Origin: Minisyncoccota bacterium
GTDB taxonomy: Bacteria; Patescibacteriota; Minisyncoccia; Phycocordibacterales; UBA2100
Reading direction: 5' to 3'
Length of the DNA: 64,000 bases
NCBI GenBank assembly: GCA_035708165.1
Contig: DASSSZ010000005.1
Span: 112,840-176,839 of the forward strand
In this document: positions 2,194 to 64,000 of the stretch, piece by piece
Layout of the letters: the number at the start of each line of letters is the position of its first letter
Numbering within the stretch: position 1 is the stretch's first letter
The notes under the pieces: generated by a model
Seen by the model: the letters and a program-made list of their open reading frames with translations, nothing else
What the model was told of the DNA's origin: nothing
Databases searched by the model: none
Translations under genes and position numbers: made by a program

Positions 2194-4509
2194 CTACTCC
2201 TGGTGCAGCGCCTGCGCGATCGCGCGCGTGCGTGCGCGCAAGGCAGGGTGCGCATCGAGCGCAGGATCGGCTGCGAGGACGGCTGCGGCTTCCGCGCGCG
2301 CTGCCTCGATCAGGCGCGGGTTCTTCAGCGCTTCCATGCCGAGATCTGAGACGCCCCACTGCGAACGACCGTAGAGGTCGCCGGCGCCACGGTTCGCGAG
2401 ATCTGCTTCCGCGAGGGCGAACCCGTCCGCGCTTCTCTCGAGCGCCCTGAGGCGGCTGAGCGATGCCTGCGAGCTCGTGTCCGGCAGGAGGTAGCAGAAG
2501 GCATCGAACGCGCTGCGCCGCACGCGGCCGCGCAGCTGGTGGAGCTGCGAGAGCCCGAAGCGCTCCGCGCCCTCGATCGCGATCACGGTCGCGTTGGGGA
2601 CATTCACGCCGACTTCGATCACCGACGTGGCTACGAGGATCTGCGTCTCATTCGCGGCGAATGCCGCCATTGCCGCGTCCTTCTCGTCCGGCTTCATCTT
2701 GCCGTGGATGAGCCCGACCGCGTATTCGGGGAAGACATCCGCAGCGAGGCGTTTCGCTTCCGCGATCGCGCTCTTCGCCTGGAGCGCCATCTCCTTGGCC
2801 GGATCCGGCTCATCGATGCGCGGGCAGACGATATACGCCTGCCGGCCTGCCGCGAGCTCGCGGCGGATAGCCGCGTACATGGCATCGCGCTCGCTCTTCT
2901 TCACGAGTGTCGTGGTGATTCCTGCGCGCTGCGGCGGCAGCTCGTCGAGGACGCTGATATCGAGGTCGCCGTAGATGGTCAAGGCGAGCGTGCGGGGGAT
3001 CGGGGTCGCGGTCATGCTGAGGAAATGCGGCGCGCCATTCGCCTGCGATCGGCGCGCTTCCTCGCTGCGGCCCACCTGCGCCTCGGCTACAGCCCGCCGG
3101 TGCGCATTCTTCGGCGCATTCCCCGCGCCTCGAACCGCATCCGATTCCGGACGGATTGAATTCTTCTGCGCGAGCGCCTGTCTCTGCCGCGTCCCGAACC
3201 GATGCTGCTCATCCACGATCGCGTAGGCGAGGTTGCGGAACTTCACCGTCTTCTGGATCAAGGCGTGCGTGCCGACGACCATCGCGATCTCGCCTCCGGC
3301 GACCCATTTGAGGAGCTGCGCGCGGGAGATCTTCGTCGGCTCGGTGCGATTCACCTTCGAGGGGTACTTCCAGCAGCCGCTCCCGGTGATGAGGGCGAGC
3401 GAGATCGGGAGCTCCTTGAAGTACTCGATGAACGAGCGGAAGTGCTGCCCGGCGAGGATCTCGGTCGGCGCCATGTAGGCGACCTGCAGGGTCCCGCTCT
3501 CGCGCCCGGCCGGGCGGCTGGTAACCGCGGCGTAGCTCGTCACGGCGGCGACGGCAGTCTTGCCGGCGCCCACGTCGCCCTCGAGGAGGCGCGCCATGGG
3601 GTGCGGCTTCCGGAAATCCGCGAAGATCTCGGCGATCGCGCGCTTCTGCGCGCCGGTGAGCGCGTAGGGGAAGGTCGCGGCGAATCGCGCCGCCTGCGCC
3701 TCATCGGCATCGATCGCAGGCGCGCGCATCGCATCGTTCTCGCCGCGCTCGAGCCGCTTGCTCGCCTGGATCACGAAGATCTCCTCGAACGCGAAGCGCT
3801 TCCGCGCGGCCTCGGCGTCGCGCAGGTTCTGCGGCGTGTGCATATAGATGAGCGCAGCGGGAAGCGCGGGGAGATGCAGCTTCTCGGCGACATCCGCCGG
3901 GATCGGGTCGTCGAGCGTATCCTGCAGGCCCGCTTCGAAGAGGCGCCGCACGGCATGGTAGAACCATCTGCTCGTGATGCCCTTCGTCTCCGGATAGACG
4001 GGGTAGAGCGTATCGTCCCCATCCGGTTCTCCGAGCAGGGGGGCGGGGATCGCCGAGCGCGAGATCGGCTCGATCTCCGGGTTCGTGATGTAGGGCTTGT
4101 CCTTGCCGGCGACGGTGCCGGTGAGCCGGACAGGGACGCCCATGGGCACCATCTTCGCGATATACGGCTGGTTGAACCACAGCACCTTGATCCTGCCGGT
4201 GCCATCCTCGAAGTAGCCTTGCGCCACGTTGCGCTTGCTCTTCCAGAGCTTCTTCGCTTCGAGCCTGCTCAGCTGCCCGTAGAGCGTGACGTGCTGCCCG
4301 CTCTCTAGCGCGGCGACGCTGCCGCCCTCGCCTGCGCGCTCATGCCGGACAGGGAAGTGGCGCAGCAGGTCCTCGAGCGTGACGAGCCCCAGGCGCTTGA
4401 GCGCGCTCTGCTGCACCGGCGTCAGCCGGAACTGCTGGATGATCGGATCCGTCGCGCGCATGCGGGCAGTATACCCGCTAGAGGAAGATGCGTGCGAGAC
4501 GGATGTCAT
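2194..4509 (-). CDS. recG: ATP-dependent DNA helicase RecG
   Basis: 771-aa ORF with an N-terminal wedge region, GDVGAGKT Walker A and a DEQHRFG-type DExH box, plus helicase C-terminal motifs. Confidence 0.9.
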   Translation of the reverse strand: MTSVSHASSSSGYTARMRATDPIIQQFRLTPVQQSALKRLGLVTLEDLLRHFPVRHERAGEGGSVAALESGQHVTLYGQLSRLEAKKLWKSKRNVAQGYFEDGTGRIKVLWFNQPYIAKMVPMGVPVRLTGTVAGKDKPYITNPEIEPISRSAIPAPLLGEPDGDDTLYPVYPETKGITSRWFYHAVRRLFEAGLQDTLDDPIPADVAEKLHLPALPAALIYMHTPQNLRDAEAARKRFAFEEIFVIQASKRLERGENDAMRAPAIDADEAQAARFAATFPYALTGAQKRAIAEIFADFRKPHPMARLLEGDVGAGKTAVAAVTSYAAVTSRPAGRESGTLQVAYMAPTEILAGQHFRSFIEYFKELPISLALITGSGCWKYPSKVNRTEPTKISRAQLLKWVAGGEIAMVVGTHALIQKTVKFRNLAYAIVDEQHRFGTRQRQALAQKNSIRPESDAVRGAGNAPKNAHRRAVAEAQVGRSEEARRSQANGAPHFLSMTATPIPRTLALTIYGDLDISVLDELPPQRAGITTTLVKKSERDAMYAAIRRELAAGRQAYIVCPRIDEPDPAKEMALQAKSAIAEAKRLAADVFPEYAVGLIHGKMKPDEKDAAMAAFAANETQILVATSVIEVGVNVPNATVIAIEGAERFGLSQLHQLRGRVRRSAFDAFCYLLPDTSSQASLSRLRALERSADGFALAEADLANRGAGDLYGRSQWGVSDLGMEALKNPRLIEAARAEAAAVLAADPALDAHPALRARTRAIAQALHQE

Positions 4510-21101: not shown

Positions 21102-22925
21102 ATGAATCCCAGGCCCTTTGCAGTGTGGGGGTTGGTGTGCCTGTTCGTGCTTGCGCCCGCCGTCTCGGCTGCGGCGACGCTTCGCGTGCGCACGGAGAGC
21201 GCGCTTCCGCTGCAGATGCTGCGCGATAAGGATGTCACGGCGCCGATCGGCGCCTCGATACGTCCCGCACGCATCCCCGCGAGCGCGCCGCTTCTGCAGA
21301 TGCACGCGCTCTCCGTGGCGCAGCCGGCGCAGCAGAACCTGATCGGCAACGCTTCGCTCGAGACAGCCGGATCGAATGGCATGCCTGCCGGCTGGCACCA
21401 AGGCGGCTACGGCTCGAACACGCGCACCTTCGCGTACCCGGCATCGCCCGCGCACGACGGCAGCGTCGCCGCATCGGTCTCCATCACGAAATACGGAAGC
21501 GGTGACGCGAAGTGGTACTTCGACCCGGTGCCCGTTACCGGGGGAGCGACGTACCAGTTCTCGGACTGGTACGTGTCGACCGTACCGTCCGAAGTGGACG
21601 TGCAGGTCACGCATACGGACGGTTCGATCACGTACCTCGTCCTTGGCGCGCCCGCGGCGAGCGCGACGTATGCGCAGTTCAGCGCCTCGTTCACTGCGCC
21701 GTCGGATGCGGCGTCCGTCACCATCTTCCATGTGATCGACTCCGTGGGCACGCTCACGGTGGATCAGTATGCGCTGACGGATGCCGCCGATGACACGCCC
21801 GTGAACGACGTGCCGAACGGGAATCTCGATGCGGAGGAGGACGGTATGCCGGTCGGCTGGATCGAAGGGGGATACGGCGACAGCACGCGCACGTTCACCT
21901 ACCCGGTGCCGGGCGTCTCGGGGAATGCCGCGTCCCTTACGGTCACTGATTACGTGAACGGCGACGCGAAGTGGGGCCCGCCGTACGCGTCCGTCCCAGC
22001 CGGCGCCTACCTCTATGAGGACGACTACGAATCGGATGCGCCCACGGTCCTCACGGCCGACTTCGCGCATGCCGACGGGACCGACCAGTACGTGGACCTC
22101 GCCGTGCTCCCGGCCGAGCGCAGCTGGACGCACGTACGCCTGCCGTTCACGGTACCGGCGGATGCGATCGGCGTGCGCGTGTTCCATCTGCTCGACCGAG
22201 ACGGCACCCTCACGATCGACAATACCTCGATCACGCCGCAGCCCGGGAGCGATCAGGGCATCTTCAAGACGGGCGCGGTCACCTTCCGCTTCGATGACGG
22301 CAGCGTGGACCAGTACGACAACGCTGCGCCGGTGCTTCAGGTGGCGGGATTCACAGGCACCTTCTATATCGTCTCGCACCAGGTGAAGGACAACGGCTAC
22401 AGCGGCTACATGTCGATCGCGCAGGTGAAAGACCTCTACGCGCGCGGCTTCGAGATCGGCGCGCACACGCGCACGCATCCCTTCCTCTCGCAGGAGAGCG
22501 CCGCAAAGCAGCAGGATGAGATCGCCGGCTCGCGGCAGGACATCCTCGGCTGGAATGTCGGGCCGGTGGATTCATTCGCGTATCCCTATGGCGATTATGA
22601 CGCGACCACCACGCGGATCGTCGAGAATGCCGGCTTCACGAGCGCGGCAGCCACCATCTCCGGCGATGTGACGCCTCTCTCGGACCACTACCAGCTGCAG
22701 TACGAGGAGGTGAAGCAGGGCGTGACGCTCGCGCAGGTGCAATCGTGGATCGACACGGCCAAGAAATCGCACACCTGGCTCATCCTCACGTTCCATCAGG
22801 TCTCCGCGACCTCGAGCGACTCGTACGCGTCCTCGCCAGCGCTCTTCAAGCAGATCGTCGCGGCCGTGCAGGCATCCGGGCTCCCCGTAGTCTCCGTCTC
22901 CGAAGGGATGCAGTCCATGCCCTAG
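21102..22925 (+). CDS. secreted polysaccharide deacetylase (NodB/CE4) with two N-terminal CBM4/9-like carbohydrate-binding modules
   Basis: Signal peptide MNPRPFAVWGLVCLFVLAPAVSA. A duplicated ~150-aa module (NLxGNxxLE...MPxGW..GGYG..TRTFxYP...DAKW). The C-terminal NodB domain carries FRFDDG...HTRTHP...YPYG motifs. Confidence 0.8.
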   Translation: MNPRPFAVWGLVCLFVLAPAVSAAATLRVRTESALPLQMLRDKDVTAPIGASIRPARIPASAPLLQMHALSVAQPAQQNLIGNASLETAGSNGMPAGWHQGGYGSNTRTFAYPASPAHDGSVAASVSITKYGSGDAKWYFDPVPVTGGATYQFSDWYVSTVPSEVDVQVTHTDGSITYLVLGAPAASATYAQFSASFTAPSDAASVTIFHVIDSVGTLTVDQYALTDAADDTPVNDVPNGNLDAEEDGMPVGWIEGGYGDSTRTFTYPVPGVSGNAASLTVTDYVNGDAKWGPPYASVPAGAYLYEDDYESDAPTVLTADFAHADGTDQYVDLAVLPAERSWTHVRLPFTVPADAIGVRVFHLLDRDGTLTIDNTSITPQPGSDQGIFKTGAVTFRFDDGSVDQYDNAAPVLQVAGFTGTFYIVSHQVKDNGYSGYMSIAQVKDLYARGFEIGAHTRTHPFLSQESAAKQQDEIAGSRQDILGWNVGPVDSFAYPYGDYDATTTRIVENAGFTSAAATISGDVTPLSDHYQLQYEEVKQGVTLAQVQSWIDTAKKSHTWLILTFHQVSATSSDSYASSPALFKQIVAAVQASGLPVVSVSEGMQSMP

Positions 22926-22984
22926 CGGTTATCCACCGCATGCGTGCTCATGAGCTTGCTACTGAGCACGCTCAGTAGCAAGCT

Positions 22985-23155
22985 ATGGTCATGATCATGA
23001 CGTTCATCAGGAAGCTCACGCGCAGCGGCGGGGGCCGGAGCCTCTCGGTCATCATCCCGGCGGAGATCGTGAAAGAGCTCAAGCTTCGCGAGCATCAGAA
23101 GCTCGCCATCCATCGCCGCGGCGCGGAGATCATCATCAGGGATTGGCGGGGGTGA
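22985..23155 (+). CDS. AbrB/MazE/SpoVT-family swapped-hairpin DNA-binding protein (56 aa)
   Basis: Hand translation gives MVMIMTFIRKLTRSGGGRSLSVIIPAEIVKELKLREHQKLAIHRRGAEIIIRDWRG. The RKLTRSG-SL-V-IPAEI-KELKL core is typical of AbrB/MazE antitoxin-like domains. It is below the ORF-track cutoff. Confidence 0.55.
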   Translation: MVMIMTFIRKLTRSGGGRSLSVIIPAEIVKELKLREHQKLAIHRRGAEIIIRDWRG

Positions 23156-23549
23156 GGCCGTGCATCCGCAGGAGCGCAGCGCAATCGGTCGTCGTTGCCG
23201 ATTGGTCGCACGAGGGGAGCCGGGCAGGGCTCACGGAGTAGCGGCCGAGCAGTACGTCCCAGAGGGTGTACGGATTCACCTGCATGCGGTCGGGGATGCC
23301 GGTGAAGACGACCGTGCCGCGCAGGAGATCGGAAAGCGGCGGCGGGGTGATGCTGAACGGGCAGAGCGCATACACGGGCACCTGCGTGCCGTCCGGCGCA
23401 CGCGCCGTCTGCGGATGCGCGAGCTGGTATTCGCACGCTTCGCGCGCGCGTATGACCGCGTACCGATGGTACGAGTACCAGGAAGCATAGCCGGCAAGCG
23501 CAGCGATGCACGCGATGCCGATCATGAGCGTGATCCGTCCCGCAGCCAT
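23136..23549 (-). CDS. hypothetical small membrane-anchored protein
   Basis: 137-aa ORF with an N-terminal TM helix (ITLMIGIACIAALAGYASWY). It converges on, and overlaps, the AbrB-like gene by 20 nt. Confidence 0.35.
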   Translation of the reverse strand: MAAGRITLMIGIACIAALAGYASWYSYHRYAVIRAREACEYQLAHPQTARAPDGTQVPVYALCPFSITPPPLSDLLRGTVVFTGIPDRMQVNPYTLWDVLLGRYSVSPARLPSCDQSATTTDCAALLRMHGLTPANP

Positions 23550-23625
23550 GATTCTTGTATGCGTACCATTCTATACCATGCTCGAATGACGATAGACCTA
23601 TCCTATGGTATCGTGTGGCCGTACA

Positions 23626-23712
23626 GGAGACGTGGCTGAGTGGTCGAAGGCACCTCACTGCTAACGAGGCGGGGTCTCAAAGCCCCCCAGGGTTCGAATC
23701 CCTGCGTCTCCG
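23626..23712 (+). tRNA. tRNA-Ser, anticodon GCU (class II, long variable arm)
   Basis: Acceptor GGAGACG pairs with CGTCTCC. Anticodon loop is CTGCTAA. Long variable arm GGGGTCTCAAAGCCCC. T-arm is CAGGG-TTCGAAT-CCCTG. Discriminator is G. No CCA is encoded. Confidence 0.85.
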
Positions 23713-23780
23713 CAAAAATAATGAGGGCGAAGCGTCAGCTCCGCCCGATTATATTTTTGCCGGAGACGCAGGGATTCGAA
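23707..23780. repeat. 74-nt structured repeat, copy 1; it starts inside the tRNA-Ser 3' end and ends with an inverted copy of the tRNA T-arm/acceptor (ggagacgcagggattcgaa)
   Basis: ctccgcaaaaataatgagggcgaagcgtcagctccgcccgattatatttttgccggagacgcagggattcgaa. Nested palindromes: caaaaataat/attatttttg and gagggcg/cgccc. Confidence 0.7.
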
Positions 23781-23879
23781 AGCCGCAGCCCCGTGGAGCG
23801 GGGCGAGGCGGGGTCGCGAACGCTTGCGGGGTTCCGAGCCGGAGGCGAAGGAACCCGTCAAGCGATTCGTGACCGAATC

Positions 23880-23952
23880 CTCCGCAAAAATAATGAGGGC
23901 GAAGCGTCAGCTCCGCCCGATTATATTTTTGCCGGAGACGCAGGGATTCGAA
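23880..23952. repeat. structured repeat, copy 2 (identical 73 nt), preceded by a degenerate T-arm fragment (cgaatcc)
   Basis: Exact direct repeat of copy 1, 173 nt downstream. The same peptide string KIMRAKRQLRPIIFLPETQGFE appears in two spurious ORFs. Confidence 0.7.
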
Positions 23953-23961
23953 GCTGCGCGT

Positions 23962-24351
23962 CTACCGCTCCCGCGTCGCGAGGAAGGCAGCCATCGTGGG
24001 CCAGTTGCGCACGCCGGTCGCGGGCGTGCCGGATTCGCGCAGGATCTCATGCAGCCGCTCGGGCGAGGTGCGCGCGAGCGCGCCGTACGAGCGGATCCCG
24101 TGCGCGGCGAGCGCATCGGCGACCGTCGGGCCGATGCCCGGGATCTTCTTGAGGTCGTCAGCGTGCCCGTCCCCCTGATCGGGCATGCGTGCAGGGAGCG
24201 CTGCGGCGGAGGAACGGCGGAAGCGCCCGTTCGGCGCAAGGAGCGTGCGGCCGAAGAGCGCGCCGAGCGCGAACGCGATGAGGAGGCCGAGCAGGAACAT
24301 GCCTGCGCCCCCTGCGGCATCGAATGCGTGCGCTGCGCCGATCCCTTCCAT
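23962..24351 (-). CDS. membrane-anchored helix-hairpin-helix (HhH) DNA-binding protein, ComEA-like
   Basis: Start MEGIG at 24351 with GGAG 10 nt upstream. N-terminal TM MFLLGLLIAFALGALF. C-terminal LKKIPGIGPTVADALAAHGIRSYGALA HhH motif. The gene lies adjacent to comFC. Confidence 0.55.
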   Translation of the reverse strand: MEGIGAAHAFDAAGGAGMFLLGLLIAFALGALFGRTLLAPNGRFRRSSAAALPARMPDQGDGHADDLKKIPGIGPTVADALAAHGIRSYGALARTSPERLHEILRESGTPATGVRNWPTMAAFLATRER

Positions 24352-24388
24352 GTGCCCTGAATCTACTCCAAATCGCGAGACAGCGCCA

Positions 24389-25042
24389 TCAGGCCCGTGC
24401 AAGGGCGAGCGCGGTCACCGCGGCCCCTTGCGTGCGCAGCGTGCGGGCCGCTTCCGTAAGCGTCGCCCCGGTCGTAGTGACGTCGTCGATGAGGATCGCG
24501 TGCACGCCCTGGTACGCGGCCCTCGGGAGGGGCGCTGCGAACGCGCCTTTGACGTTGGTGAGCCGCGCATGCCGCGAAAGCAGGGTCTGCGGCGTCGTCT
24601 CCCGGGTGCGCGCGAGGAGATCGGCGCGCACCGGGAGCGCGATGCCGAGCGCCGGGAGCTCCGCGAGGGAAAGCGCGATCTGATTGTAGCCGCGCTCGCG
24701 GAAGCGCCGCTTCGCAAGCGGCATCGGGACGAGCACGAGCGCTCGCGCATCGAATGCGTCCTCCTCGCCCATGAGCTCGAGCAGAAAATCGGCGAGCAGC
24801 CCTGCGAGCTGGCGCGCTGCAGCGCGGCTCTTCTCATACTTGAGCGCCTGGATCGCGTCGGCGATGGATGAATCGCGGTACAGCGAAAGCGCGATGATCG
24901 CATCGTCCGTCGCGGCAGGCGCAGCGGGGAGCGGGCGGCGCGCGTTCCTGCGTACGCGCCGCTCGCGCGCGGACGGCGGGAACACGAGATCAAGGATCGC
25001 ATTCCCGGCATGCACTGCTTGTGCACCGAGAGGGATGCGCAT
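24389..25042 (-). CDS. comFC: ComF-family competence protein (phosphoribosyltransferase domain)
   Basis: PRTase motif ILIDDVTTTGATL and ComFC-like core. It is divergent from pilM. Confidence 0.75.
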   Translation of the reverse strand: MRIPLGAQAVHAGNAILDLVFPPSARERRVRRNARRPLPAAPAATDDAIIALSLYRDSSIADAIQALKYEKSRAAARQLAGLLADFLLELMGEEDAFDARALVLVPMPLAKRRFRERGYNQIALSLAELPALGIALPVRADLLARTRETTPQTLLSRHARLTNVKGAFAAPLPRAAYQGVHAILIDDVTTTGATLTEAARTLRTQGAAVTALALARA

Positions 25043-25086
25043 GCAGCCACTATAGCGGATTACCCGATGCTATACTGTGTACATCT

Positions 25087-26238
25087 ATGCCACGGATCGG
25101 TCTTTCGCAGATCCTCAGCAAGGCGCAAGCCTTCCTCGGCCAAGGGACGCCGACATCGGTGCTCGGCATCGACGTCGGCTCCTCGTCGCTGAAGGTGGTG
25201 CAGCTGAAGATGGTCCGCGAGACGGTCGTGCTCGAGACGTACGGCGAGATCGCGCTCGGGCCGTATGCGAACCAGCCCGTCGGCAAGACGGTGCGGCTCG
25301 ACCCTGAACAGATCGCGGCGGCGATCGGCGACCTCTCGAAGGAGGCGAACGTCACGGCCACGCACGCCGGCGTCGCGATCCCGTTCTCCTCGAGCCTCGT
25401 CTCGATCATCGACATGCCCAAGGTGGGGGAGAGCCAGCTCTCGCGCATGATCCCGATCGAGGCGCGCAAGTACATCCCGGTCCCGATCACGGAAGTGACG
25501 CTCGATTGGTTCGTCATCCCAGAGAAGCACGAGGAGGACGCGTTCGATCGCGTGCAGGAAGAGACTGAGATGCAGAAGACGGGGCGCGAGGTGCTGATCG
25601 CCGCGATCCACAACGAGACGATCCGGAATTTCCAGACCACCATGGAGACCGCGAAGATCGCCGTCTCCTTCTTCGAGATCGAGATCTTCAGCACGATCCG
25701 CTCCGTGCTCGGCACGGGCATCGAGCCGGTCGTCGTGGTGGATATCGGCGCCTCGACGACCAAGATCTACGTCGTCGAGCGGGGGATCGTGCGCGCATCC
25801 CACCTCGTCTCGATCGGCTCGCAGTCGCTCACGGAGGCAGTCGCTCGCTCGCTCGGGTGGACGTTTGAGAAAGCGGAGCGCATGAAGCGCGAGTGGGGGC
25901 TCACCGACTCGGATGCGTACAGCCGCGATGAGAACGATCGCATGCATGAAGCGATGCTATCCACATTGTCGCGTATCTTCGCGGAAGTGAATCGCGTATT
26001 ATTGACGTACGGGAAGCGGTACAACAAGAACGTCTCGCAAGTCGTATTCGTCGGCGGAGGCGCAGCGTTGGCCGGGCTTGCCGATATCGCGACGAAAGAG
26101 CTGAACGTGGATACCGTCATGGCCGCGCCGTTCGACAAGGTCGAGGCGCCGGCGTTCCTCGATGGGGTCCTGCATTCGATCGGGCCGGGATTCGCAGTCG
26201 CAGTCGGCGTCGCGATGCGGCGCCTGAGGCAGGGATAG
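25087..26238 (+). CDS. pilM: type IV pilus assembly protein PilM (actin-like ATPase)
   Basis: LGIDVGSSSLKVVQL N-terminus and an actin/FtsA-like fold signature. The in-frame start is MPRIGLSQ at 25087. Confidence 0.85.
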   Translation: MPRIGLSQILSKAQAFLGQGTPTSVLGIDVGSSSLKVVQLKMVRETVVLETYGEIALGPYANQPVGKTVRLDPEQIAAAIGDLSKEANVTATHAGVAIPFSSSLVSIIDMPKVGESQLSRMIPIEARKYIPVPITEVTLDWFVIPEKHEEDAFDRVQEETEMQKTGREVLIAAIHNETIRNFQTTMETAKIAVSFFEIEIFSTIRSVLGTGIEPVVVVDIGASTTKIYVVERGIVRASHLVSIGSQSLTEAVARSLGWTFEKAERMKREWGLTDSDAYSRDENDRMHEAMLSTLSRIFAEVNRVLLTYGKRYNKNVSQVVFVGGGAALAGLADIATKELNVDTVMAAPFDKVEAPAFLDGVLHSIGPGFAVAVGVAMRRLRQG

Positions 26239-26253
26239 ACCCGACCATACCGC

Positions 26254-27021
26254 ATGGAATCGCAGATCAAGTCATCATTCATACCGCAGGACGTCGGCAG
26301 GCCGGCAGCATCGGTGCGCCGCACCGGCAGCGGCGGCGAGCTCCTGGTGCTCGGCGCCATCATCCTCGTCGTCGCATCGGTCGCGCTCGGGGCGTCCGTC
26401 TTCCTCTATACGCAGTATCTCAATAATGCGATCAGCAGCCAGCAGCAATCGATCGATCGGGCGCGCGCGGCGATCGAGCCATCCCTCATCGATGAGCTCA
26501 CCCGCCTCGATCAGCGCATGAAGACGTCCGATACGCTCCTGCAGCAGCACGTCGCGCCTTCGATCCTCTTCAATTACCTCGAGCAGGTGACGCTCCAGTC
26601 GGTCACCCTCAAGTCGCTCGAGATGAAGATGGTCTCGCCGACCAAGATCGAGCTCACGATGAAAGGCGCGGCGGCGAGCGTCAACGGCATCGCGCTGCAA
26701 TCCGATCTCCTCGGCAAGAGCGGCCTCATCACGAGCCCGATCTTCTCCGATATCAATCGCGGTGCCGATGGACTGATGGATTTCCAGGTGAACGCGGGGA
26801 TCGATCCCTCGTCGCTTCGCTACGAGCAGCTCGTGAGCGGCGGCCAGCCGGCAGCAGGCGCGCAGCTTTCGGCACCGCAGCAATCATCCGCGACGAACGG
26901 GAGCGCCGCTGGCGGCCTGCCGCAGTCCTCGGCGCCAGCGACGAGCGGCACGCAGGCGACCAGCACCGGCGCTGCGTCGTCGGCCGCAGCATCAGTCCCG
27001 ACGTTCACCCCCACCCAGTAA
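26254..27021 (+). CDS. pilN: PilN-like pilus assembly protein
   Basis: Short cytoplasmic N-terminus, single TM (LLVLGAIILVVASVALGASVFLY) and a coiled-coil periplasmic part. Synteny pilM-N-O. Confidence 0.55.
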   Translation: MESQIKSSFIPQDVGRPAASVRRTGSGGELLVLGAIILVVASVALGASVFLYTQYLNNAISSQQQSIDRARAAIEPSLIDELTRLDQRMKTSDTLLQQHVAPSILFNYLEQVTLQSVTLKSLEMKMVSPTKIELTMKGAAASVNGIALQSDLLGKSGLITSPIFSDINRGADGLMDFQVNAGIDPSSLRYEQLVSGGQPAAGAQLSAPQQSSATNGSAAGGLPQSSAPATSGTQATSTGAASSAAASVPTFTPTQ

Positions 27022-27024
27022 CGT

Positions 27025-27624
27025 ATGTTCAAGCTCTTCACGACCATCCTGCTCCTCCTCGTCGCTGCCGTGGTGTTCTTCGGCTATACGAAGCCGGCGT
27101 ACTCGCATGTGCAGGAGCTCCGCGCGCAGTCCGGGCAGCTCAACCAGATCCTCTCCGAGGCGAGCGAATTCCAGAAGCTCAAGTCGCAGCTGATCGCGCG
27201 CTACAACGCGCTGCCCTCGGACAAGCTCGCGCGCCTCTCGAAGCTCCTGCCCGATCATGTGGACAACGTGCGGCTCATCCTCGATATCGACTCACTCGCC
27301 GGGCAGAACGGCCTCGCGCTCGAGAACGTCGTCATCAATTCCGGCACGGGCGCTTCAGGCTCAGGCTCAGGCTCGGACTCCGACTCGAGCGACGCCCCGA
27401 CAGCGCTCGGCGCGGCGAGCGCGAACCAGGTCCCGTACGGCACGCTCACCATGCAGTTCAAGACCGAAGGGTCGTACCAGCATTTCCTGCAGTTCCTGCA
27501 CGGGCTCGAAGGCAGCCTCCGGCTCGTGGACGTGACGGATCTCACGGTGAGCCAGGGCAGCAGCGCGTCGGCGCCGGATTCCTACGCGTACGCGATGACC
27601 ATACAGACCTACTGGCTCAAATAG
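27025..27624 (+). CDS. pilO: PilO-like pilus assembly protein
   Basis: N-terminal TM (LFTTILLLLVAAVVFFGY) and a coiled coil, with a GSGSGSDSDSS linker. Synteny. Confidence 0.5.
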   Translation: MFKLFTTILLLLVAAVVFFGYTKPAYSHVQELRAQSGQLNQILSEASEFQKLKSQLIARYNALPSDKLARLSKLLPDHVDNVRLILDIDSLAGQNGLALENVVINSGTGASGSGSGSDSDSSDAPTALGAASANQVPYGTLTMQFKTEGSYQHFLQFLHGLEGSLRLVDVTDLTVSQGSSASAPDSYAYAMTIQTYWLK

Positions 27625-27633
27625 CACCTGCTT

Positions 27634-27999
27634 ATGATAGACACGCTCAAATCGCATAAGGTCGTCGCCATCGTGATCGTCGTCATCGTCCTCGGCGGCC
27701 TCTGGTACATCATGGGCGGCGGGGGAAGCAGCAGCCAGCTCTTGGAGAGTTCGGACGCGTCAGCATCGGCATCCGGAGACGCGACCGTCGCGGCGGTGGA
27801 TCAGGAGCTCCAGTCCACCCTCGCGAAGGTGCGCGCGATCTCGCTCGATGATTCGATCATGAGCGACCCGGCATTCCTCGGCCTTACCGACATCGGCCAG
27901 CAGATCGTCTCCGAGCCGTTCGGCCGCTCAGACCCGTTCGCGCCGATCAGTTCGCGCTCGGGCGCGAGCAGCGATGCGGGCTCGGCGGGCAGCAACTAG
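27634..27999 (+). CDS. small membrane-anchored protein (PilP-like position)
   Basis: Single TM VVAIVIVVIVLGGLWYIMG and a Ser/Ala-rich tail. It lies between pilO and pilB. Confidence 0.35.
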   Translation: MIDTLKSHKVVAIVIVVIVLGGLWYIMGGGGSSSQLLESSDASASASGDATVAAVDQELQSTLAKVRAISLDDSIMSDPAFLGLTDIGQQIVSEPFGRSDPFAPISSRSGASSDAGSAGSN

Positions 28000-28047
28000 C
28001 CCGCGCACGCCGCGCATGCGGCAGCATCGGGTACAATACGTAGACGT

Positions 28048-29919
28048 ATGCCGAACGACCTAGCGCAATCTGCCGCTCCAGCGCCCGTGCCGGTGCCGCC
28101 TGCAGCCGCTGCACCGGCCGCGCAGGAGCAGGACGGCATCCCCGTGCGATCGCTCAAGCCGGATGAGAAGATCCCGTACGAGGTCCTGCGCATGGTGCCG
28201 CAGGAATCCGCCGAGCATTACAGCTTCGTGCCGCTCGACGTGGACGAGAACGTCCTCGAGGTCGGCATGCTCGACCCGGAGAACCTCCAGGCCATCGACG
28301 CCCTCAATTTCATCACCCGCCAGAGCGGGATGCCATACAAGATATTCCGCATCTCCCGGGAGGATTTCGATACGGTCCTCAAGATGTACCGCGGCCTCTC
28401 CGGAGAGGTGGACGAGGCGCTCTCCGAGCAGGCAGGCGTCGCCGGTGCGGCAAAGCAGAGCGGCTTCACGCCGGAAGGCGCCGATACGCCGCTCGATCTC
28501 GATGATCCGAATGCGGGCATCCAGCAGTCGGAAAGCGACCAGCAGGGGAAGGGGAAGAAGGGCGAGATCGAGATCCGCGTCGACGCGCCCTCGATCAAGC
28601 TCGCATCGACCATCCTGCGCTACGCGATCGACGGCAAGGCATCCGACGTGCATATCGAGCCGACCTCCGCCGGCGTGCGCGTGCGCTACCGCGTGGACGG
28701 CACGCTGCATACGAGCGTGGTCCTGCCGATCGGCGTGCATCGCTCGCTCGTCGCGCGCATCAAGGTGCTTTCCTCGATCCGGCTCGACGAGCAGCGCAAG
28801 CCGCAGGACGGCCGCTTCGCCGCACAGATCGACAACCGCAAGATCGACTTCCGCGTCTCGACGCTTCCGTCCTACTACGGCGAGAAGATCGTGATCCGCA
28901 TCCTCGACCGGCAGGAGGGCCTGATCCCGCTCGATACGATCGGGATGCCGGAAGACATGCTCCGTATCACGCGCGAAGCGCTCGCGCAGCCGCATGGCCT
29001 CATCCTGATCTCCGGCCCGACCGGGTCCGGCAAGTCCACGACCCTCTACTCCATGCTCTCCGAGCTCAATCGCGAGGAGAAGAACGTGCTCTCGCTCGAG
29101 GATCCGATCGAATACAACATGGACGGCGTCACGCAGTCGCAGGTGCGGCCGGAGATCGGGTACACGTTCGCGAACGGGCTGCGCACCACCCTGCGCCAGG
29201 ACCCGGATATCATCATGGTAGGCGAGATCCGCGACGGCGAGACGGCGAAGCTCGCCATCCAGGCGGCGCTCACGGGCCACCTCGTGCTCTCGACCATCCA
29301 CACAAACAGCGCCGTCGGCACGATCCCGCGCCTCATAGACATGGGCGTCGAGCCGTACCTCATCCCGCCCACGCTCATCCTCTCGATGGCGCAGCGTCTC
29401 GTGCGCAAGCTCTGCCCGGACGGCGGCGAGCCGACGCCCGTCACCGAGAGCGTGCGCGACATGCTCGCGAAGGAGTTCGCCGACCTGCCGGAGCACAAGC
29501 GGCCGGCCATCCCTGACACGGTCTACGAAGCGCGCCGGACCCCGAGCTGCCCGAACGGCACGCGCGGGCGCCAGGCCGTCTTCGAGATGCTGCCGATGAG
29601 CTCGCCGCTCGAGCGCATCATCCTCAAGGAGCCGATCGAGTCCGAGCTATGGGCAGTCGCGCGGCAGGAGGGCATGCTCACGATGAAGGAGGATGCTATC
29701 CTCAAATCGTTCGCCGGCGAGATCCCGTTCTCGGAGGTGAACGCGCTCGGCACGACCCTCCTCATGGACGAGGAGACCGACGAGGCGCTCGACACGGCGG
29801 CGGAAGCGCCTGTCTCGGCGGCGGGCGAGACGAATGCCGACCCGACCGCCGGGATGGTGCCTGCGCCGCAGACGATCGACCTCGAGGACGAGTCCGGCGG
29901 CGAGCCGCCGACCGCCTAG
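28048..29919 (+). CDS. pilB: type IV pilus assembly ATPase PilB (GspE family)
   Basis: GSPII_E N-terminal domain. Walker A ISGPTGSGKSTTLYSML. Asp and His boxes. Tetracysteine-like CPDGG...CPNGTRGR. Confidence 0.9.
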   Translation: MPNDLAQSAAPAPVPVPPAAAAPAAQEQDGIPVRSLKPDEKIPYEVLRMVPQESAEHYSFVPLDVDENVLEVGMLDPENLQAIDALNFITRQSGMPYKIFRISREDFDTVLKMYRGLSGEVDEALSEQAGVAGAAKQSGFTPEGADTPLDLDDPNAGIQQSESDQQGKGKKGEIEIRVDAPSIKLASTILRYAIDGKASDVHIEPTSAGVRVRYRVDGTLHTSVVLPIGVHRSLVARIKVLSSIRLDEQRKPQDGRFAAQIDNRKIDFRVSTLPSYYGEKIVIRILDRQEGLIPLDTIGMPEDMLRITREALAQPHGLILISGPTGSGKSTTLYSMLSELNREEKNVLSLEDPIEYNMDGVTQSQVRPEIGYTFANGLRTTLRQDPDIIMVGEIRDGETAKLAIQAALTGHLVLSTIHTNSAVGTIPRLIDMGVEPYLIPPTLILSMAQRLVRKLCPDGGEPTPVTESVRDMLAKEFADLPEHKRPAIPDTVYEARRTPSCPNGTRGRQAVFEMLPMSSPLERIILKEPIESELWAVARQEGMLTMKEDAILKSFAGEIPFSEVNALGTTLLMDEETDEALDTAAEAPVSAAGETNADPTAGMVPAPQTIDLEDESGGEPPTA

Positions 29920-41758: not shown

Positions 41759-41829
41759 AGCGGGGTGGAGGAGCGGTACCTCACGAGGCTCATAACCTCG
41801 GGACCCTGGTTCGAATCCAGGCCCCGCAA
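41759..41829 (+). tRNA. tRNA-Met, anticodon CAU, initiator-like (unpaired A1•A72)
   Basis: D-arm GAGG/CCTC. Anticodon stem CGAGG/CCTCG with loop CTCATAA. T-arm CCTGG-TTCGAAT-CCAGG. Acceptor AGCGGGG/CCCCGCA leaves positions 1:72 unpaired, as in bacterial initiators. Confidence 0.65.
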
Positions 41830-42190
41830 CAAGCAAACGAGAACCCGGCGCATGCCGGGTTCTCGTTTGCGCGGCGCGGGGAAGAAGGCAGCCTGCGCTG
41901 CCTTCGCCTGGATCCGAACAGGCGGAGCCGTATCGCGCGCAGCGAAGCGAGCACGATCGGCGAGCCCGGGGAGGAAGTCCTTAACGAGCGGAGCGAGTTT
42001 AGGAACTTGACCCTCGAATCCAGGCCCCGCAACAAGGAAACACGAGCGGCCATTCGGCCGCTCGCGTTCTTCGTATTTCTCGTAGGTGCGGGCAGGTGCC
42101 GTCCGGAGTCGACTTTCCAGGCCCACAACTGCTGCTCCACCCTCCAATAGCAACGATCCGATAGGCAAGCCTATCGGATCGTTGCTTATG

Positions 42191-45800: not shown

Positions 45801-45873
45801 GCCACCTTAGCTCAGTTGGTAGAGCGACGCACTCGTAACGCGTAGGTCCCCAGTTCAATCCTGGGAGGTGGCT
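45801..45873 (+). tRNA. tRNA-Thr, anticodon CGU
   Basis: GCCACCT-TA-GCTC..GAGC-G-ACGCA-CTCGTAA-CGCGT-AGGTC-CCCAG-TTCAATC-CTGGG-AGGTGGC-T. Confidence 0.9.
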
Positions 45874-45950
45874 CAAAGAGATTCATCAGATCCATTCGCT
45901 CCGATTCGGAGCTCCAGGGGTGGAGGGTGATGCGAGCGCGCGCAGCATCG

Positions 45951-45997
45951 CCCACTCGTACCTCACGGTGCCAGTTCAATCCTGGGAGGTGGCTCAA
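45951..45997 (+). pseudogene. partial tRNA-Thr(CGU) duplicate (anticodon-loop-to-3'-end fragment)
   Basis: cccactcgtacctcacggtgccagttcaatcctgggaggtggctcaag. The last 27 nt are identical to the 3' end of the intact tRNA ~100 nt upstream. The 5' part is degenerate. Confidence 0.6.
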
Positions 45998-54055: not shown

Positions 54056-54787
54056 ATGGCGCTCTCGCTTATCTCTCTCAATATCGAGCGGGACCGGCAC
54101 CTGCCCGCAGTCGAGGCGCTCCTGCAGGAAACGGCACCGGATGTGGCTTGCCTCCAGGAGGTTTTCGAAGCAGACCTGCCAGCACTCGCGAAAGCGGCCG
54201 AGGGTGAGGCGCTCTTCGTGCCGCGCATCCGCTATCCGAGCCCGCGCGGCCTCATGCCGGAAGGGCTCGCGATCATTTCCCGACGAGGGCTCTCCGATCA
54301 GGCATCAGCATGCTATGCCGGCGAGAAGGCCGCGATCCCGATCGCGGCGATCGACGGCTCCGTCGAGGAGAAGCAGCGCGACCAGCGCTATAGCATCGCG
54401 TCCTGCCTCGTCGAGAAGGATGGCGCCTCTTACCGCATCGTGACGACGCATTTCCCCTGGACGCCCGACGGCGAAGCGGATGCGTTCCAGCGCGATGCGC
54501 TCGCAGGGCTCTTCAGCGTGCTCGAGCCATTAGGCGAATTCGTGCTGACCGGCGATTTCAATGCGCCGCGCGGCAAGGAGATCTTCAGTGCGATCGCCGA
54601 GCGGTACGCGGATGCCGTGCCGCCCGCGTATGGATCTTCGATCGACGGACGCATCCATCGCGCCGGACCGATCCCGTACATGGTGGATGGCCTGTTCTCG
54701 ACGCAGGACTATCGCATCTCGGACGTCGTGATGCGCTGCGGCGTCTCCGATCACTGCGCGCTCGCCGGGGCAATCGAGCGCGCCTGA
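54056..54787 (+). CDS. endonuclease/exonuclease/phosphatase (EEP) family protein
   Basis: Start MALSLISLNIE at 54056. ...CLQEV..., VTTHFPW, LTGDFNAPRG and VSDHCAL are motifs typical of the EEP fold. Confidence 0.7.
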   Translation: MALSLISLNIERDRHLPAVEALLQETAPDVACLQEVFEADLPALAKAAEGEALFVPRIRYPSPRGLMPEGLAIISRRGLSDQASACYAGEKAAIPIAAIDGSVEEKQRDQRYSIASCLVEKDGASYRIVTTHFPWTPDGEADAFQRDALAGLFSVLEPLGEFVLTGDFNAPRGKEIFSAIAERYADAVPPAYGSSIDGRIHRAGPIPYMVDGLFSTQDYRISDVVMRCGVSDHCALAGAIERA

Positions 54788-57569: not shown

Positions 57570-57640
57570 TGCCGGATCGTCTAATGGTAGGACAACGGAT
57601 TCTGGCTCCGTTTATCTAGGTTCGAGTCCTAGTCCGGCAG
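57570..57640 (+). tRNA. tRNA-Gln, anticodon CUG
   Basis: TGCCGGA-TC-GTCT-AATGGTA-GGAC-A-ACGGA-TTCTGGC-TCCGT-TTAT-CTAGG-TTCGAGT-CCTAG-TCCGGCA-G. Confidence 0.85.
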
Positions 57641-57715
57641 CAGCTTAGTTTAGTATCGAAGGACCTAGAGGGGTATAAATGCTTCTGTTTCTACTCACCC
57701 CCCGAAAGGCCTATA

Positions 57716-60529: not shown

Positions 60530-61798
60530 AATTAGGTTTTTATTTTCCAGCTGTAGTTGGGATTTCAGGCAAGTGAGAAGATCTCGCCTCTCAAATATCG
60601 ACCCTTCGGTTAGCAGGTACTTCGCGTAGTTGCGAATATCGGCGTCCTTCACAGAATAATTCTCGTCTGCCTTGCCCATAATCCCTGAATGGAACTTCTT
60701 ATGCCGCTCAATCTCAGCCTCGAGCTTTTTCTTGATACCAGAGCGGTCAAGATCTATCTGGTCAATAATTTCCGTTAGTTGCGAGATAAGGACCTTCTCC
60801 TCAATGTAGCCTTCTTTGCAGTTGATATTCCGTGAGCGAGTGCAACCATAGTAGATGTACTTGGCGATCGAACCGTCCTTCAGGGTCTTGAATTTCTCTT
60901 GGGCCGTCACACCGGATCCGCAGGTTCCACAGGAGAGCAAACGAGTGAAAGCGAACTCTTTGTTTTTGCCTCGGGCTTTGATTTGAAGGTGAAGCTGCTT
61001 CTGCACCTCTTCGAAAAGTTCTCTGGATATGAGTGGCGTATGCTTACCCTGGAACCATCGGCCGCTGTTCTTGGGGTATTCAAAAGTACCGTAGTAGAAG
61101 TGGTTATTGAGAATGACGTATACGTTGCTCAGAGTTAGAGGTTTGCCGGTACGGGTAACGAATTTGATTTCCTTGAGCCAGCGATATACTTTCCTACCAC
61201 TCCAGCCTTCATTGGCTACTTTCTGAAAGAGTTCCTTCATAACAGGGGCTCGATCAGGATCTACGAACACCACGCCTTTCTGATCCTTATTTTTTGAATT
61301 GAGATAACCGGTTGGGGCTACTGAAGGCCAGAGGCCGAGCTCGCACTTGGTTTTGAGCCCGCGCTTCACATTGATGCTCTTGTTGTCGTTCTCCAGCTTC
61401 GCCTGGCTACCAAGGATCATGAGAAGGAACTTCTCATTGGGGTTGTTAGTGAAGCGTTGACTGTAAGTACGAATTTCAATGAGCTTCTTCTGGTCGAAGA
61501 GATCCACGATCGCCCCAAGGTCGCCGGCATTGCGGGATAGACGGTCCGGATGCCACACCAAGATCCCATTGAATTTACCCTCCCGAATATTGAGAAGGAG
61601 CTGGTTGAACACAGGCCGCTGGCCGGCATCCTTTGCGGAGTGCGATTCTCGGTACATATCGACCACATTCAGTCCGTCTCGCTGCGCTAAGGCCAACATC
61701 TCCTTAAGCTGGGAATCTATCGAAAGCGCCTGTTTTTCCTCGGCTTCGCTCGATTTTCGGGCGTACAGGCAGTACCTGACTGGCTCCTGGTTTTCCAT
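60521..61798 (-). CDS. large serine recombinase (serine integrase)
   Basis: Resolvase catalytic N-terminus VRYCLYARKSSEAEEKQALSIDSQ (nucleophile Ser). Recombinase domain. Zinc-ribbon CGTCGSGV...YYGCTRSRNINC plus a coiled coil. The start could alternatively be 61843. Confidence 0.85.
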   Translation of the reverse strand: MENQEPVRYCLYARKSSEAEEKQALSIDSQLKEMLALAQRDGLNVVDMYRESHSAKDAGQRPVFNQLLLNIREGKFNGILVWHPDRLSRNAGDLGAIVDLFDQKKLIEIRTYSQRFTNNPNEKFLLMILGSQAKLENDNKSINVKRGLKTKCELGLWPSVAPTGYLNSKNKDQKGVVFVDPDRAPVMKELFQKVANEGWSGRKVYRWLKEIKFVTRTGKPLTLSNVYVILNNHFYYGTFEYPKNSGRWFQGKHTPLISRELFEEVQKQLHLQIKARGKNKEFAFTRLLSCGTCGSGVTAQEKFKTLKDGSIAKYIYYGCTRSRNINCKEGYIEEKVLISQLTEIIDQIDLDRSGIKKKLEAEIERHKKFHSGIMGKADENYSVKDADIRNYAKYLLTEGSIFERRDLLTCLKSQLQLENKNLILL

Positions 61799-61911
61799 AC
61801 AACACAACACATGCCCGAAGCCGGGGAAGAAGTCCATACCCAAGCTGGTGGTAAGAAATACGGCTTTAAACCAAGGCGATTTCGTGATAAAATCATGAAA
61901 ATCCTTATTTT

Positions 61912-63510: not shown

Positions 63511-63514
63511 TCCT

Positions 63515-64000
63515 ATGAAGCTCAAGCGTTATCAAACAAACGCAATAGAAACGCTGGATCAATTCCTGGATCTCGTCAGGAAGATGAAGCCGCGGCATGC
63601 CTTCAATGAGATAACGGAGCAGGTCTACAACCATGAGTGGTTCGGGGACGTACCTTTTGTGTGTATTCGTATCCCCACGGGCGGCGGAAAAACGTTCGTT
63701 GGCTGCAAGGCAGTCGAACGGATCATGAGCACAGTCCTCCAGAACAAGATGGACACCGGCATTGTGATGTGGTTCGTACCATCAGACTCCATCAAGACTC
63801 AAACGTTGAAGAAGTTCCGAGATCCTAAAGATGCCCACTACCAAGCGCTGAACGAAGCATTCGGGACGAAGTTCAAAGTCTTTTCAAATGAAGAGGCTTT
63901 GACAATTTCGCCGGAGGACGTGACGAATAATCTCTGCGTTATCGTCGCCAGTCTCGATGCATTCAGGAAAGACGCGTCTATTCAGAAAAAGTACAAGGTC
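63515..64000 (+). CDS. res: Type III restriction enzyme Res subunit (helicase/ATPase), 3' end outside the window
   Basis: ATG 5 nt after the mod stop. Walker A IRIPTGGGKTFVG and the beginning of a DEAD-like helicase. Confidence 0.8.
   Translation, partial: MKLKRYQTNAIETLDQFLDLVRKMKPRHAFNEITEQVYNHEWFGDVPFVCIRIPTGGGKTFVGCKAVERIMSTVLQNKMDTGIVMWFVPSDSIKTQTLKKFRDPKDAHYQALNEAFGTKFKVFSNEEALTISPEDVTNNLCVIVASLDAFRKDASIQKKYKV

Follow-up and report, generated by a model that had tools for sequence, protein, structure and literature searches.

Within the 64,000-nt stretch of DNA from a Minisyncoccota bacterium that we analysed (GenBank assembly GCA_035708165.1, contig DASSSZ010000005.1; the whole stretch is referred to as the window), a tRNA-Ser(GCU) gene is followed by two inverted copies and one direct copy of its own 3' end. 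An original prediction, made from the letters of the sequence, had called this tRNA gene and had pointed to an exact inverted complement of its last 19 nt. Both calls hold: ARAGORN and Rfam recognise the gene, and the exact inverted complement occurs twice downstream of it. The locus can be dissected into the tRNA tail (X), a terminator-like hairpin (T), an inverted copy of the tail (X'), a structured core (psi) and a direct copy of the tail (X''), which are arranged as follows.

23626-23713, plus strand: tRNA-Ser(GCU) gene (ARAGORN call; Rfam tRNA, 51.8 bits); CCA is not encoded
23693-23713, plus strand: X, the tRNA tail from T-loop to discriminator (21 nt), within tRNA-Ser
23714-23761, no strand assigned: T1, consisting of an A-tract, a GC hairpin (core 23725-23746) and a T-tract; centre of the X/X' palindrome, as seen in the folds
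23762-23780, plus strand: X'1, exact reverse complement of 23693-23711; predicted 5' strand of a closing helix (R1 alignment, see below)
23781-23872, plus strand: psi, predicted three-way-junction core (R1 match, minimum-free-energy fold, family covariation, motif)
23873-23884, plus strand: X'', direct copy of the tRNA 3' end (cgaatcc..tccg); predicted 3' strand of the closing helix (sequence and R1 alignment)
23885-23933, no strand assigned: T2, second copy of the terminator-like hairpin, inside a 73-nt exact repeat; called as a terminator on the minus strand
23934-23952, plus strand: X'2, second exact inverted copy of the tRNA tail, followed by neither psi nor X''

The 19-mer TTCGAATCCCTGCGTCTCC of the tRNA tail (23693-23711, plus strand) and its exact reverse complements at 23762-23780 and 23934-23952 amount to 3 observed matches against 0.03 expected, and the inverted arms reach 26 nt at 92% (23693-23718 and 23755-23780). 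The duplication that had been predicted is exact as well, and only its dimensions needed correction: 73 nt rather than 74 nt are 100% identical between 23708-23780 and 23880-23952, and the two copies lie 172 nt rather than 173 nt apart from start to start. The degenerate T-arm fragment noticed ahead of the second copy is X'' at 23873-23884, whose 12 nt correspond to the tRNA-Ser 3' end with a 7-nt deletion (ctgcgtc). Folding of the palindrome, which had been proposed as a check, bears it out, since X-T-X' (88 nt) folds at -61.9 kcal/mol (z = -11.3); the fold of the entire region 23626-23960 has a z score of -9.9.

What the original prediction missed was psi, and with it the extent of the unit. 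It had treated the 74-nt stretch as the unit, whereas the repeated 73 nt hold T and X' only and the real unit is X'-psi-X'' (23762-23884), which begins 48 nt past tRNA-Ser. A second unit behind tRNA-Ser is truncated, with only T and X' left, and the distance from the end of X'2 to the stop codon (23962-23964) of a gene for an HhH-domain protein, which converges with tRNA-Ser, is 9 nt. T itself is a bidirectional terminator-like hairpin. Its GC-rich hairpin with T-run qualifies as an intrinsic (rho-independent) terminator for the inner hairpin only; in a terminator scan, both copies of it were called as minus-strand terminators. Read on the plus strand, the T-run is 6-7 nt away from the GC stem. 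T2 is situated ~30-80 nt beyond the stop codon of the convergent HhH gene. In other loci of the family described below, canonical terminators occupy the position of T.

Two contigs of the Logan short-read assembly of SRR25158513 are identical to parts of the locus, L002 to window positions 22451-23737 and L001 to 23923-28902. Through these matches, the outer junctions tRNA-T1 and T2-X'2-HhH are independently confirmed, while the middle of the locus (23738-23922) is given by the source assembly alone. Both contigs end within a copy of T, and the 73-nt repeat thus behaves as a repeat in de Bruijn assembly.

A family of units tailored to the neighbouring tRNA

We searched metagenomes for the 3' half of a T-arm followed 55-85 nt later by its reverse complement, and at least 120 contigs, with GC contents of 0.25-0.67, matched this pattern. 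Among the matches listed, nearly all contigs carried a single tRNA (Ser, Arg, Gln, Val, Tyr, Lys, Ala, Asp or Leu). The layout tRNA-T-X'-psi-X'' was present in more than 100 independent contigs, behind tRNAs for Ser, Arg, Gln, Val, Tyr, Lys, Ala, Asp, Leu and Pro, and the order of the parts is fixed: X, the terminator hairpin T, X', 70-200 nt of structured psi, and X'', which often runs through CCA and is sometimes followed by T and another unit. The inverted arms measure 11-28 nt and have their outer edge usually at the T-loop TTCGAA; with the lengths of mostly 11-15 nt, X' usually comprises only the T-loop, the T-stem and part of the acceptor. The psi of the window is recognisable behind tRNAs for Tyr (L109), Val (L113, L019), Gln (L067) and Asp (L071, L110) and behind other Ser tRNAs, and the pattern common to these loci reads GGGATTCGAA-AGNCGGAG-hairpin-CGAGNCGGGGTCGCGAA-hairpin-TTCGTGACC-GAATCC.

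From eight metagenome units (sub-alignment A2), the window being excluded, we built a covariance model that we call R1; MAFFT by itself had mis-aligned the units (A1), and the sub-alignment together with the covariance model was used instead. R1 matches the window at 23762-23891 over its full length (1-124) with 65 bits (E ~4e-18), and this score, attained by a model built without the window, assigns the Ser unit to the family. From 100 sources (765 kb), R1 recovered 74 non-overlapping units, 52 of them positioned 24-69 nt behind a tRNA gene on the same strand and 14 more in arrays. Behind tRNAs that lie outside the search pattern (Leu, Pro, Lys-UUU, Arg-GCG and His), X'' matches the different T-loops of those very tRNAs. 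In 50 of the 109 loci derived from the pattern, the last 13 nt of the tRNA recur with at most one mismatch within 400 nt after X'; beyond 400 nt, no copy of the tail was found in any of the 109 loci, with flanks of up to 13 kb. Each unit is tailored to its neighbouring tRNA.

Above threshold, Rfam reported only tRNAs in the window and in 18 such loci. No gene, recombinase genes included, lies consistently nearby across the loci, and a search of the literature yielded no description of a general family of such tRNA-linked units.

Full tandem arrays occur in other loci (L074 and L087, and also the array in L055), whereas at tRNA-Ser only T and X' are repeated as the 73-nt block. Contigs with 3-5 units each are represented by L074 3170-4567, L087 3770-4167, L101 82-2259 and L037 654-8665; some of these hold tandem arrays with a period of ~150 nt, and in others the units stand behind different tRNAs of one cluster, each matched to its own tRNA. 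Four sets of near-identical contigs (L066/L070/L073/L120, L095/L105, L046/L118 and L107/L117) have tRNA-T-X' in common and diverge abruptly 6-25 nt into psi. Such deletions and replacements among near-identical contigs indicate that the region just after X' turns over fast.

The original prediction had considered a small mobile repeat of the MITE (miniature inverted-repeat transposable element) type and had proposed that copies be counted. Only two adjacent copies of the repeat exist in the 64-kb window, and none was found in the collections searched. A 21-mer across the T/X' junction matched, in GTDB genomes, only L003 3600-3620, a chance match in a coding region of a Thermoplasmatota contig; this being the sole match, the window's own genome is not among the GTDB species representatives. 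The 24-nt hairpin core had 0 matches in JGI metagenomes, and blastn with the exact element gave no match in phages and plasmids. MITEs and REP (repetitive extragenic palindromic) sequences are likewise small, non-coding, palindromic and repeated, but the element of the window differs from them by its lack of dispersed identical copies, of a target-site duplication and of terminal inverted repeats of its own, and by being fixed behind tRNAs to which it is tailored. Its inverted repeat is the tRNA tail itself, and there is no duplicated target around the 73-nt block. The MITE reading fails.

Viral contigs gave 0 matches to the strict palindrome pattern. The sole match from a viral collection is L129 791-997, in an IMG/VR contig of 48.5 kb, where tRNA-Arg(CCG) is followed by T, X', psi and X'' (R1, 21 bits). 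Units seem to be rare in, or at the edge of, phage-like contigs.

Covariation, strand preference and predicted fold

Consensus folding of A2 with RNAalifold pairs X' with X'' in a closing helix and adds a 3-bp GNC/GNC helix, the middle pair of which covaries, and two hairpins, A and B; hairpin A is reached via a GGA/GAG internal loop that is tandem-GA-like and hints at a protein partner. In the Ser psi, the 3-bp helix is formed by GCC (23782-84) and GGC (23807-09), hairpin A spans 23789-23803, and hairpin B (23812-23874) carries an apical GAGC..GCGAA motif. X' of the Ser unit pairs with X'' (GGGAUUC/GAAUCC) both in the minimum-free-energy fold and in the R1 alignment, and the unit as a whole folds as a predicted three-way junction (z = -5.5).

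In the alignment of 74 rows, 91.6% of the cells are paired, double changes occur in 29 of 32 pairs, and the covariation score is 0.301; shuffled controls reach 0.09 and slid controls 0.057 at most. The fitting of this alignment to the model inflates the family's values somewhat. G-U pairs (74) outnumber A-C mismatches (28). In a test that uses no alignment, 61 of 72 units have the better fold on the tRNA-sense strand, with a mean difference from the antisense strand of -5.5 kcal/mol (p = 5e-11). A conserved fold on the tRNA-sense strand would most simply be that of an RNA. An acceptor-stem compensation score, by which X', X'' and the tRNA were to be compared, was confounded by register shifts and inserted hairpins and was not used.

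Comparison with E. coli RtT and other recorded RNAs

The 178-bp repeat of the E. coli K-12 tyrV/tyrT locus consists of a spacer, GGGGAAGGAT (the complement of the tRNA-Tyr T-stem/acceptor), ~100 nt, and TAATCCTTCCCCCACCACCA (a copy of the tRNA tail). The Rfam model RtT (rttR; RF00391) closes on the GGGGAAGGAT/TAATCCTTCCCCCACCACCA helix, in which the copy is followed by CCACCA, and ends in an unpaired CCACCACCA. RtT and the units of the window resemble each other in several respects: both lie directly 3' of a tRNA gene and on its strand, both end in a direct copy of the last ~19 nt of the tRNA and start with the complement of a part of it, and in both the complement and the copy pair as a closing helix with a tRNA-like single-stranded 3' tail. 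With the family at large, RtT has tandem units and the internal GAGC-N-GCGAG motif in common. All three RtT units and both units of the window contain the motif GAGC-N(1-6)-GCGA(G/A), as do 19 of 100 psi regions; of 100 antisense and 100 shuffled sequences, none contains it. Differences exist as well. What separates unit and tRNA is a terminator-like hairpin in the window and a plain 59-nt spacer in E. coli; the internal folds are not the same, the window having the three-way junction with the GNC/GNC helix; the inverted copy measures ~10 nt in E. coli and a full 19-26 nt in the window; and the host of the window is a bacterium of the candidate phyla radiation (CPR; Paceibacterota).

RF00391 has no match in 11 related loci, while E. 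coli scores 134-138 bits with it. Judged by sequence, the relation between the window units and RtT is apparently a likeness of design with at most remote homology, and not one of Rfam membership. Two further Rfam families gave sub-threshold scores, sX4 from Xanthomonas (RF02223) on tRNA, T and X' of the window (36.8 bits; gathering score 70) and Clostridiales-2 (RF02937) on the psi of L012 (33.5 bits; gathering score 58.6). They may be other recorded members of the same class; these scores are far below gathering, and neither family has been described as tRNA-tailored. sX4 was detected as a transcript in Xanthomonas by differential RNA sequencing (dRNA-seq) and northern blots (PMC3300014).

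A proposed structured RNA in the tRNA trailer

We favour, with modest confidence, the view that the locus encodes an RtT-like RNA in the trailer of tRNA-Ser, with a tRNA-like 3' end, partly decayed and partly duplicated, whose transcription and processing we infer. Among the options of the original prediction, a tRNA-mimicking terminator or processing element came closest to it: the terminator-like inner hairpin and a structured unit with RtT layout are there, while the unit had been delimited wrongly. We regard the element as a CPR variant of the obscure RtT-type tRNA trailer repeats, and our survey suggests that this kind of repeat is far more widespread and regular than the searchable literature indicates.

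According to this model, transcription of the unit would follow the sense of the tRNA, with the polymerase either reading through T or starting shortly ahead of X'. X' and X'' would then pair and close the three-way junction of psi with its conserved junction nucleotides, and the closing helix together with the 3' tail would imitate the T-stem, the acceptor and the 3' end of a tRNA. tRNA end-processing enzymes, which probably define the ends of the unit, could subsequently excise it as a small and stable RNA. For E. coli, rtT RNA is reportedly released in this manner, by processing of the tyrT transcript, in work ascribed to Egan & Landy 1978, Rossi 1981 and Bösl & Kersten 1991. Arrays would grow and shrink by unequal recombination between copies of X and X''. 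In the window, the first unit would have lost 7 nt of X'' and the second would have been reduced to T and X'. The exact 73-nt repeat would follow from the survival of the second unit as T and X' only, and the best pairing of X'1 with tRNA-Ser itself from the loss of the 7 nt. The truncated end of X'2 would abut a rearrangement breakpoint beside the HhH gene, for which, being convergent, T could double as a terminator.

Several observations weigh against this view. RF00391 has no match at E<=1 in window positions 22500-25000, and R1 in turn has no match on the E. coli RtT. Since X' usually covers only part of the acceptor, the mimicry of a tRNA is partial, and in the Ser unit X'' is damaged and X'1 pairs better with the tRNA itself. 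A terminator stands upstream of the unit in 39 of 71 units and after it in 16 of 71; with the terminator usually preceding the unit, co-transcription with the tRNA needs read-through of T or an unseen promoter, and no sigma-70-like promoter was found. The covariation statistics are, as stated, somewhat inflated. Among relatives of the window, the unit behind tRNA-Ser is present in L004 and absent behind the orthologous tRNA-Ser in the more distant L132 and L133, so that units are evidently gained and lost.

A second unit behind tRNA-Met

The window holds one more member of the family.

41874-42041, plus strand: second family member, 44 nt after tRNA-Met(CAU) (41759-41830), identified by R1 and by its repeats

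R1 matches it at 41900-42032 (23 bits, E 3e-5). Its X' (41906-41919) is complementary to the T-arm of tRNA-Met, and its X'' (42014-42041) is a 28-nt direct copy, at 96%, of the tRNA-Met 3' end and trailer (41811-41838). The unit possesses in addition an acceptor-5'-like GCGGGG at 41876-81 and an extra hairpin (41885-41904) with the loop CCUGCGC. No convergent gene abuts it. X'' is intact while both flanking T hairpins have diverged, which argues for selection or gene conversion on X''. The extra hairpin with its conserved 7-nt loop CCUGCGC was also seen at L004 4469-4490 and in L055, in a unit behind tRNA-Ser-CGA; it sits between the acceptor-5'-like and the T-stem-5'-like parts of X', a place equivalent to that of the D and anticodon arms of a tRNA.

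Genomic surroundings and relatives

Upstream of tRNA-Ser lies an open reading frame (ORF) of 137 codons on the minus strand (137 aa, 23136-23549) with no Pfam match. Downstream follow the gene for the HhH-domain protein (~23965-24300, minus strand) and then ComF-like and PilM genes; a polysaccharide deacetylase is also among the flanking ORFs. We compared the window with relatives whose PilM identity is 62-77% (L004/L005, L006, L007, L132 and L133). In the window, tRNA-Ser(GCU) points towards the HhH gene, whereas all five relatives (L004, L006, L007, L132 and L133) carry it on the strand of HhH and ComF; its orientation is therefore inverted in the window. Gene order past tRNA-Ser differs from that of the relatives as well, which constitutes a synteny break at the locus. 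We rejected an inversion of the tRNA by recombination between X and X', as this would flip only T or psi, and not the body of the tRNA. Relative to the relatives, in a comparison that included L004 4538-5096, RecG (3124-4461) and a p252 homologue (54062-54784) are displaced.

In L133 (2505-3732), from a Kaiserbacteria-like relative, 30 nt separate the end of a gene for a tyrosine integrase (Phage_integrase) from the 3' terminus of the orthologous tRNA-Ser(GCU). No X'/psi unit was found at this tRNA-Ser(GCU). Given the adjoining tyrosine integrase, tRNA-Ser(GCU) is also an ordinary integration site in the lineage. L006 (106-939) has a LAGLIDADG homing-endonuclease-like ORF between the HhH gene and tRNA-Ser.

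Two other tRNA genes of the window have conspicuous neighbourhoods. Directly after tRNA-Gln (57570-57641), the GC content falls from ~0.65 to 0.45-0.51 (57570-64000), and the ORFs past this tRNA encode an SMC/AAA_21-like ATPase (57716-60529), a large serine recombinase (60521-61843, minus strand) and an N6/N4 DNA methylase (61912-63510); the segment 57570-64000 looks like a foreign island inserted beside tRNA-Gln. The last 24 nt (45851-45874) of tRNA-Thr(CGU) (45801-45874) are repeated exactly at 45972-45995, 97 nt downstream, and a weaker similarity extends as far back as ACTCGTA of the anticodon loop. This tail repeat has neither an inverted copy nor an R1 match, and it may represent another type of tRNA-tail duplication or else the scar of an integration at the position of the anticodon loop.

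Alternative explanations

Miniature integrative or mobile DNA would be the main rival account of the locus. A ~170-nt X-T-X'-psi element would have entered the tRNA gene by site-specific recombination in the T-loop, an origin that we regard as unlikely but as a serious alternative. It would have supplied a new tRNA 3' end and a terminator, X'' would be the displaced original 3' end, and the repeat and the arrays would reflect repeated integration; we are equally doubtful about these particulars. Folded as a single strand, the hairpin of X and X' could act as an attachment site of the kind known from CTX phage and integron attC. The T-loop is the classical integrase crossover position, and the tail copies start there (TTCGAA), with the outer edge of the inverted repeat in the T-loop in most loci. 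X'' is often more complete than X' and frequently includes CCA and trailer sequence of the tRNA in question; direct repeats of the tRNA 3' end flank the putative insertions (X at 23693-23713 and X'' at 23873-23884 for Ser, 41811-41838 and 42014-42041 for Met); and a circular X-T-X'-psi would fold as a closed rod. The arrays (L074, L087, L055), the presence or absence of units at orthologous tRNA-Ser genes, the synteny break, the inverted tRNA and the tyrosine integrase that adjoins the same tRNA-Ser in L133 point in the same direction. The psi helices, however, covary in units of many tRNA types and GC contents and show the strand bias that is usual for transcribed sequence, no recombinase is consistently nearby (the 137-aa ORF, polysaccharide deacetylase and HhH protein being what flanks the locus), and the absence of any copy of X'' more than 400 nt away, in flanks of up to 13 kb, means that there are no larger elements with this end. 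Double-strand integration gives no reason for the match of X' to each tRNA, none of the other collections searched contains the exact element, and the Met X'', intact beside diverged hairpins, is unlike a neutral scar. Tyrosine-integrase attL/attR repeats in tRNA genes, including a T-loop sublocation, have reportedly been described by Williams 2002. With attL/attR, the locus has in common the direct repeat of the tRNA 3' end from the T-loop, an intact tRNA gene, the synteny break and an integrase at the same tRNA of a relative; it differs in that the 'element' would be ~170 nt, without integrase, and with an inverted copy of the site and a covarying structured core. Integron attC and CTX-phage attP sites are likewise imperfect palindromes with recombination-site arms, and palindromes with short inserts also form arrays there, but the locus has no integron integrase or Xer context, its arms are the tRNA tail and its insert, psi, is conserved too, so that the match is one of resemblance only. 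From the attachment-site scar that the original prediction had offered, the direct copy starting in the T-loop can be retained; the covarying structure, the strand bias and the lack of a distant X'' are left unexplained by it.

A second alternative is a bidirectional terminator, and nothing more, between the convergent tRNA-Ser and HhH genes; palindrome-extending replication errors (template switching) would have lengthened its stem before a local duplication. Both copies of T resemble terminators when read on the minus strand, the second of them lying directly beyond the stop codon of HhH, the design of A-tract, hairpin and T-tract is typical of terminators, and the palindrome is very stable. 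Psi, with its 65 bits to the independent R1, and X'' are left unexplained, however, the unit behind tRNA-Met has no abutting convergent gene, and more than 100 loci present the same ordered parts. A terminator as the sole content of the locus is therefore improbable; the R1 match and the survey of 74 units have already largely refuted it. The debris of duplicated tRNA-Ser genes, in which 23781-23884 would be the decayed 3' half of a second gene and the inverted 19-mers the remains of convergent copies, would fit the T-arm-like end at 23873-23884 and a resemblance of 23804-23834 to the variable arm of tRNA-Ser, where 12 nt match exactly and 31 nt at 74%. Yet psi (…GAGTCGGGGTCGCGAA…TTCGTGACCGAATCC) is found in unrelated contigs behind other Ser tRNAs and behind tRNAs for Tyr, Val, Gln and Asp, X' complements the 3' strand perfectly and is not a tRNA 5' half, and ARAGORN and Rfam find no second tRNA; we hold gene debris to be very improbable. 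A palindrome and repeat created by mis-joined reads are harder still to believe in: the Logan contigs of the same sample do break in both copies of T, but they confirm both outer junctions, and the order of the parts agrees with more than 100 independent contigs and with E. coli K-12. Further candidates were set aside. An origin of X' from an unrecognised convergent tRNA was dismissed because ARAGORN and Rfam find one tRNA per locus; X-T-X' as the left end of large islands, because of the lack of a tail copy beyond 400 nt (up to 13 kb) and of common downstream genes; and a group II intron, an IS200/605-TnpB guide, an IS110 bridge RNA, a homing spacer of a CRISPR-associated transposon (CAST) and a retron, because no protein partner lies nearby and no Rfam family fits.

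Implications

On a more speculative note, E. coli RtT may be one branch of a very widespread and unrecognised superfamily of tRNA-tethered structured RNAs that extends over CPR bacteria, gut Firmicutes and Proteobacteria, a proposal about which we have more doubt than confidence. It raises the question of how an element acquires both strands of the 3' end of its neighbouring tRNA. Should the superfamily exist, then a dedicated copying of the tRNA tail into the element would have to be assumed, be it through gene conversion or through a recombination or hairpin mechanism specific to the T-loop, and its function would hinge on likeness to a tRNA end, for instance through hijacked processing, as a decoy or sensor for enzymes acting on tRNA 3' ends, or by pairing with the tRNA.

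For genome analysis, palindromes and repeats of this type matter as they break short-read assemblies at tRNA genes and can pass for integration scars. If the family described here is real, many bacteria would carry structured elements behind their tRNA genes that annotation has missed, each matched to its own tRNA. The 45-year-old puzzle of the tyrT repeat and rtT RNA would then gain a context, and the class, which occurs in unculturable CPR bacteria as well, would have a tractable model in E. coli.

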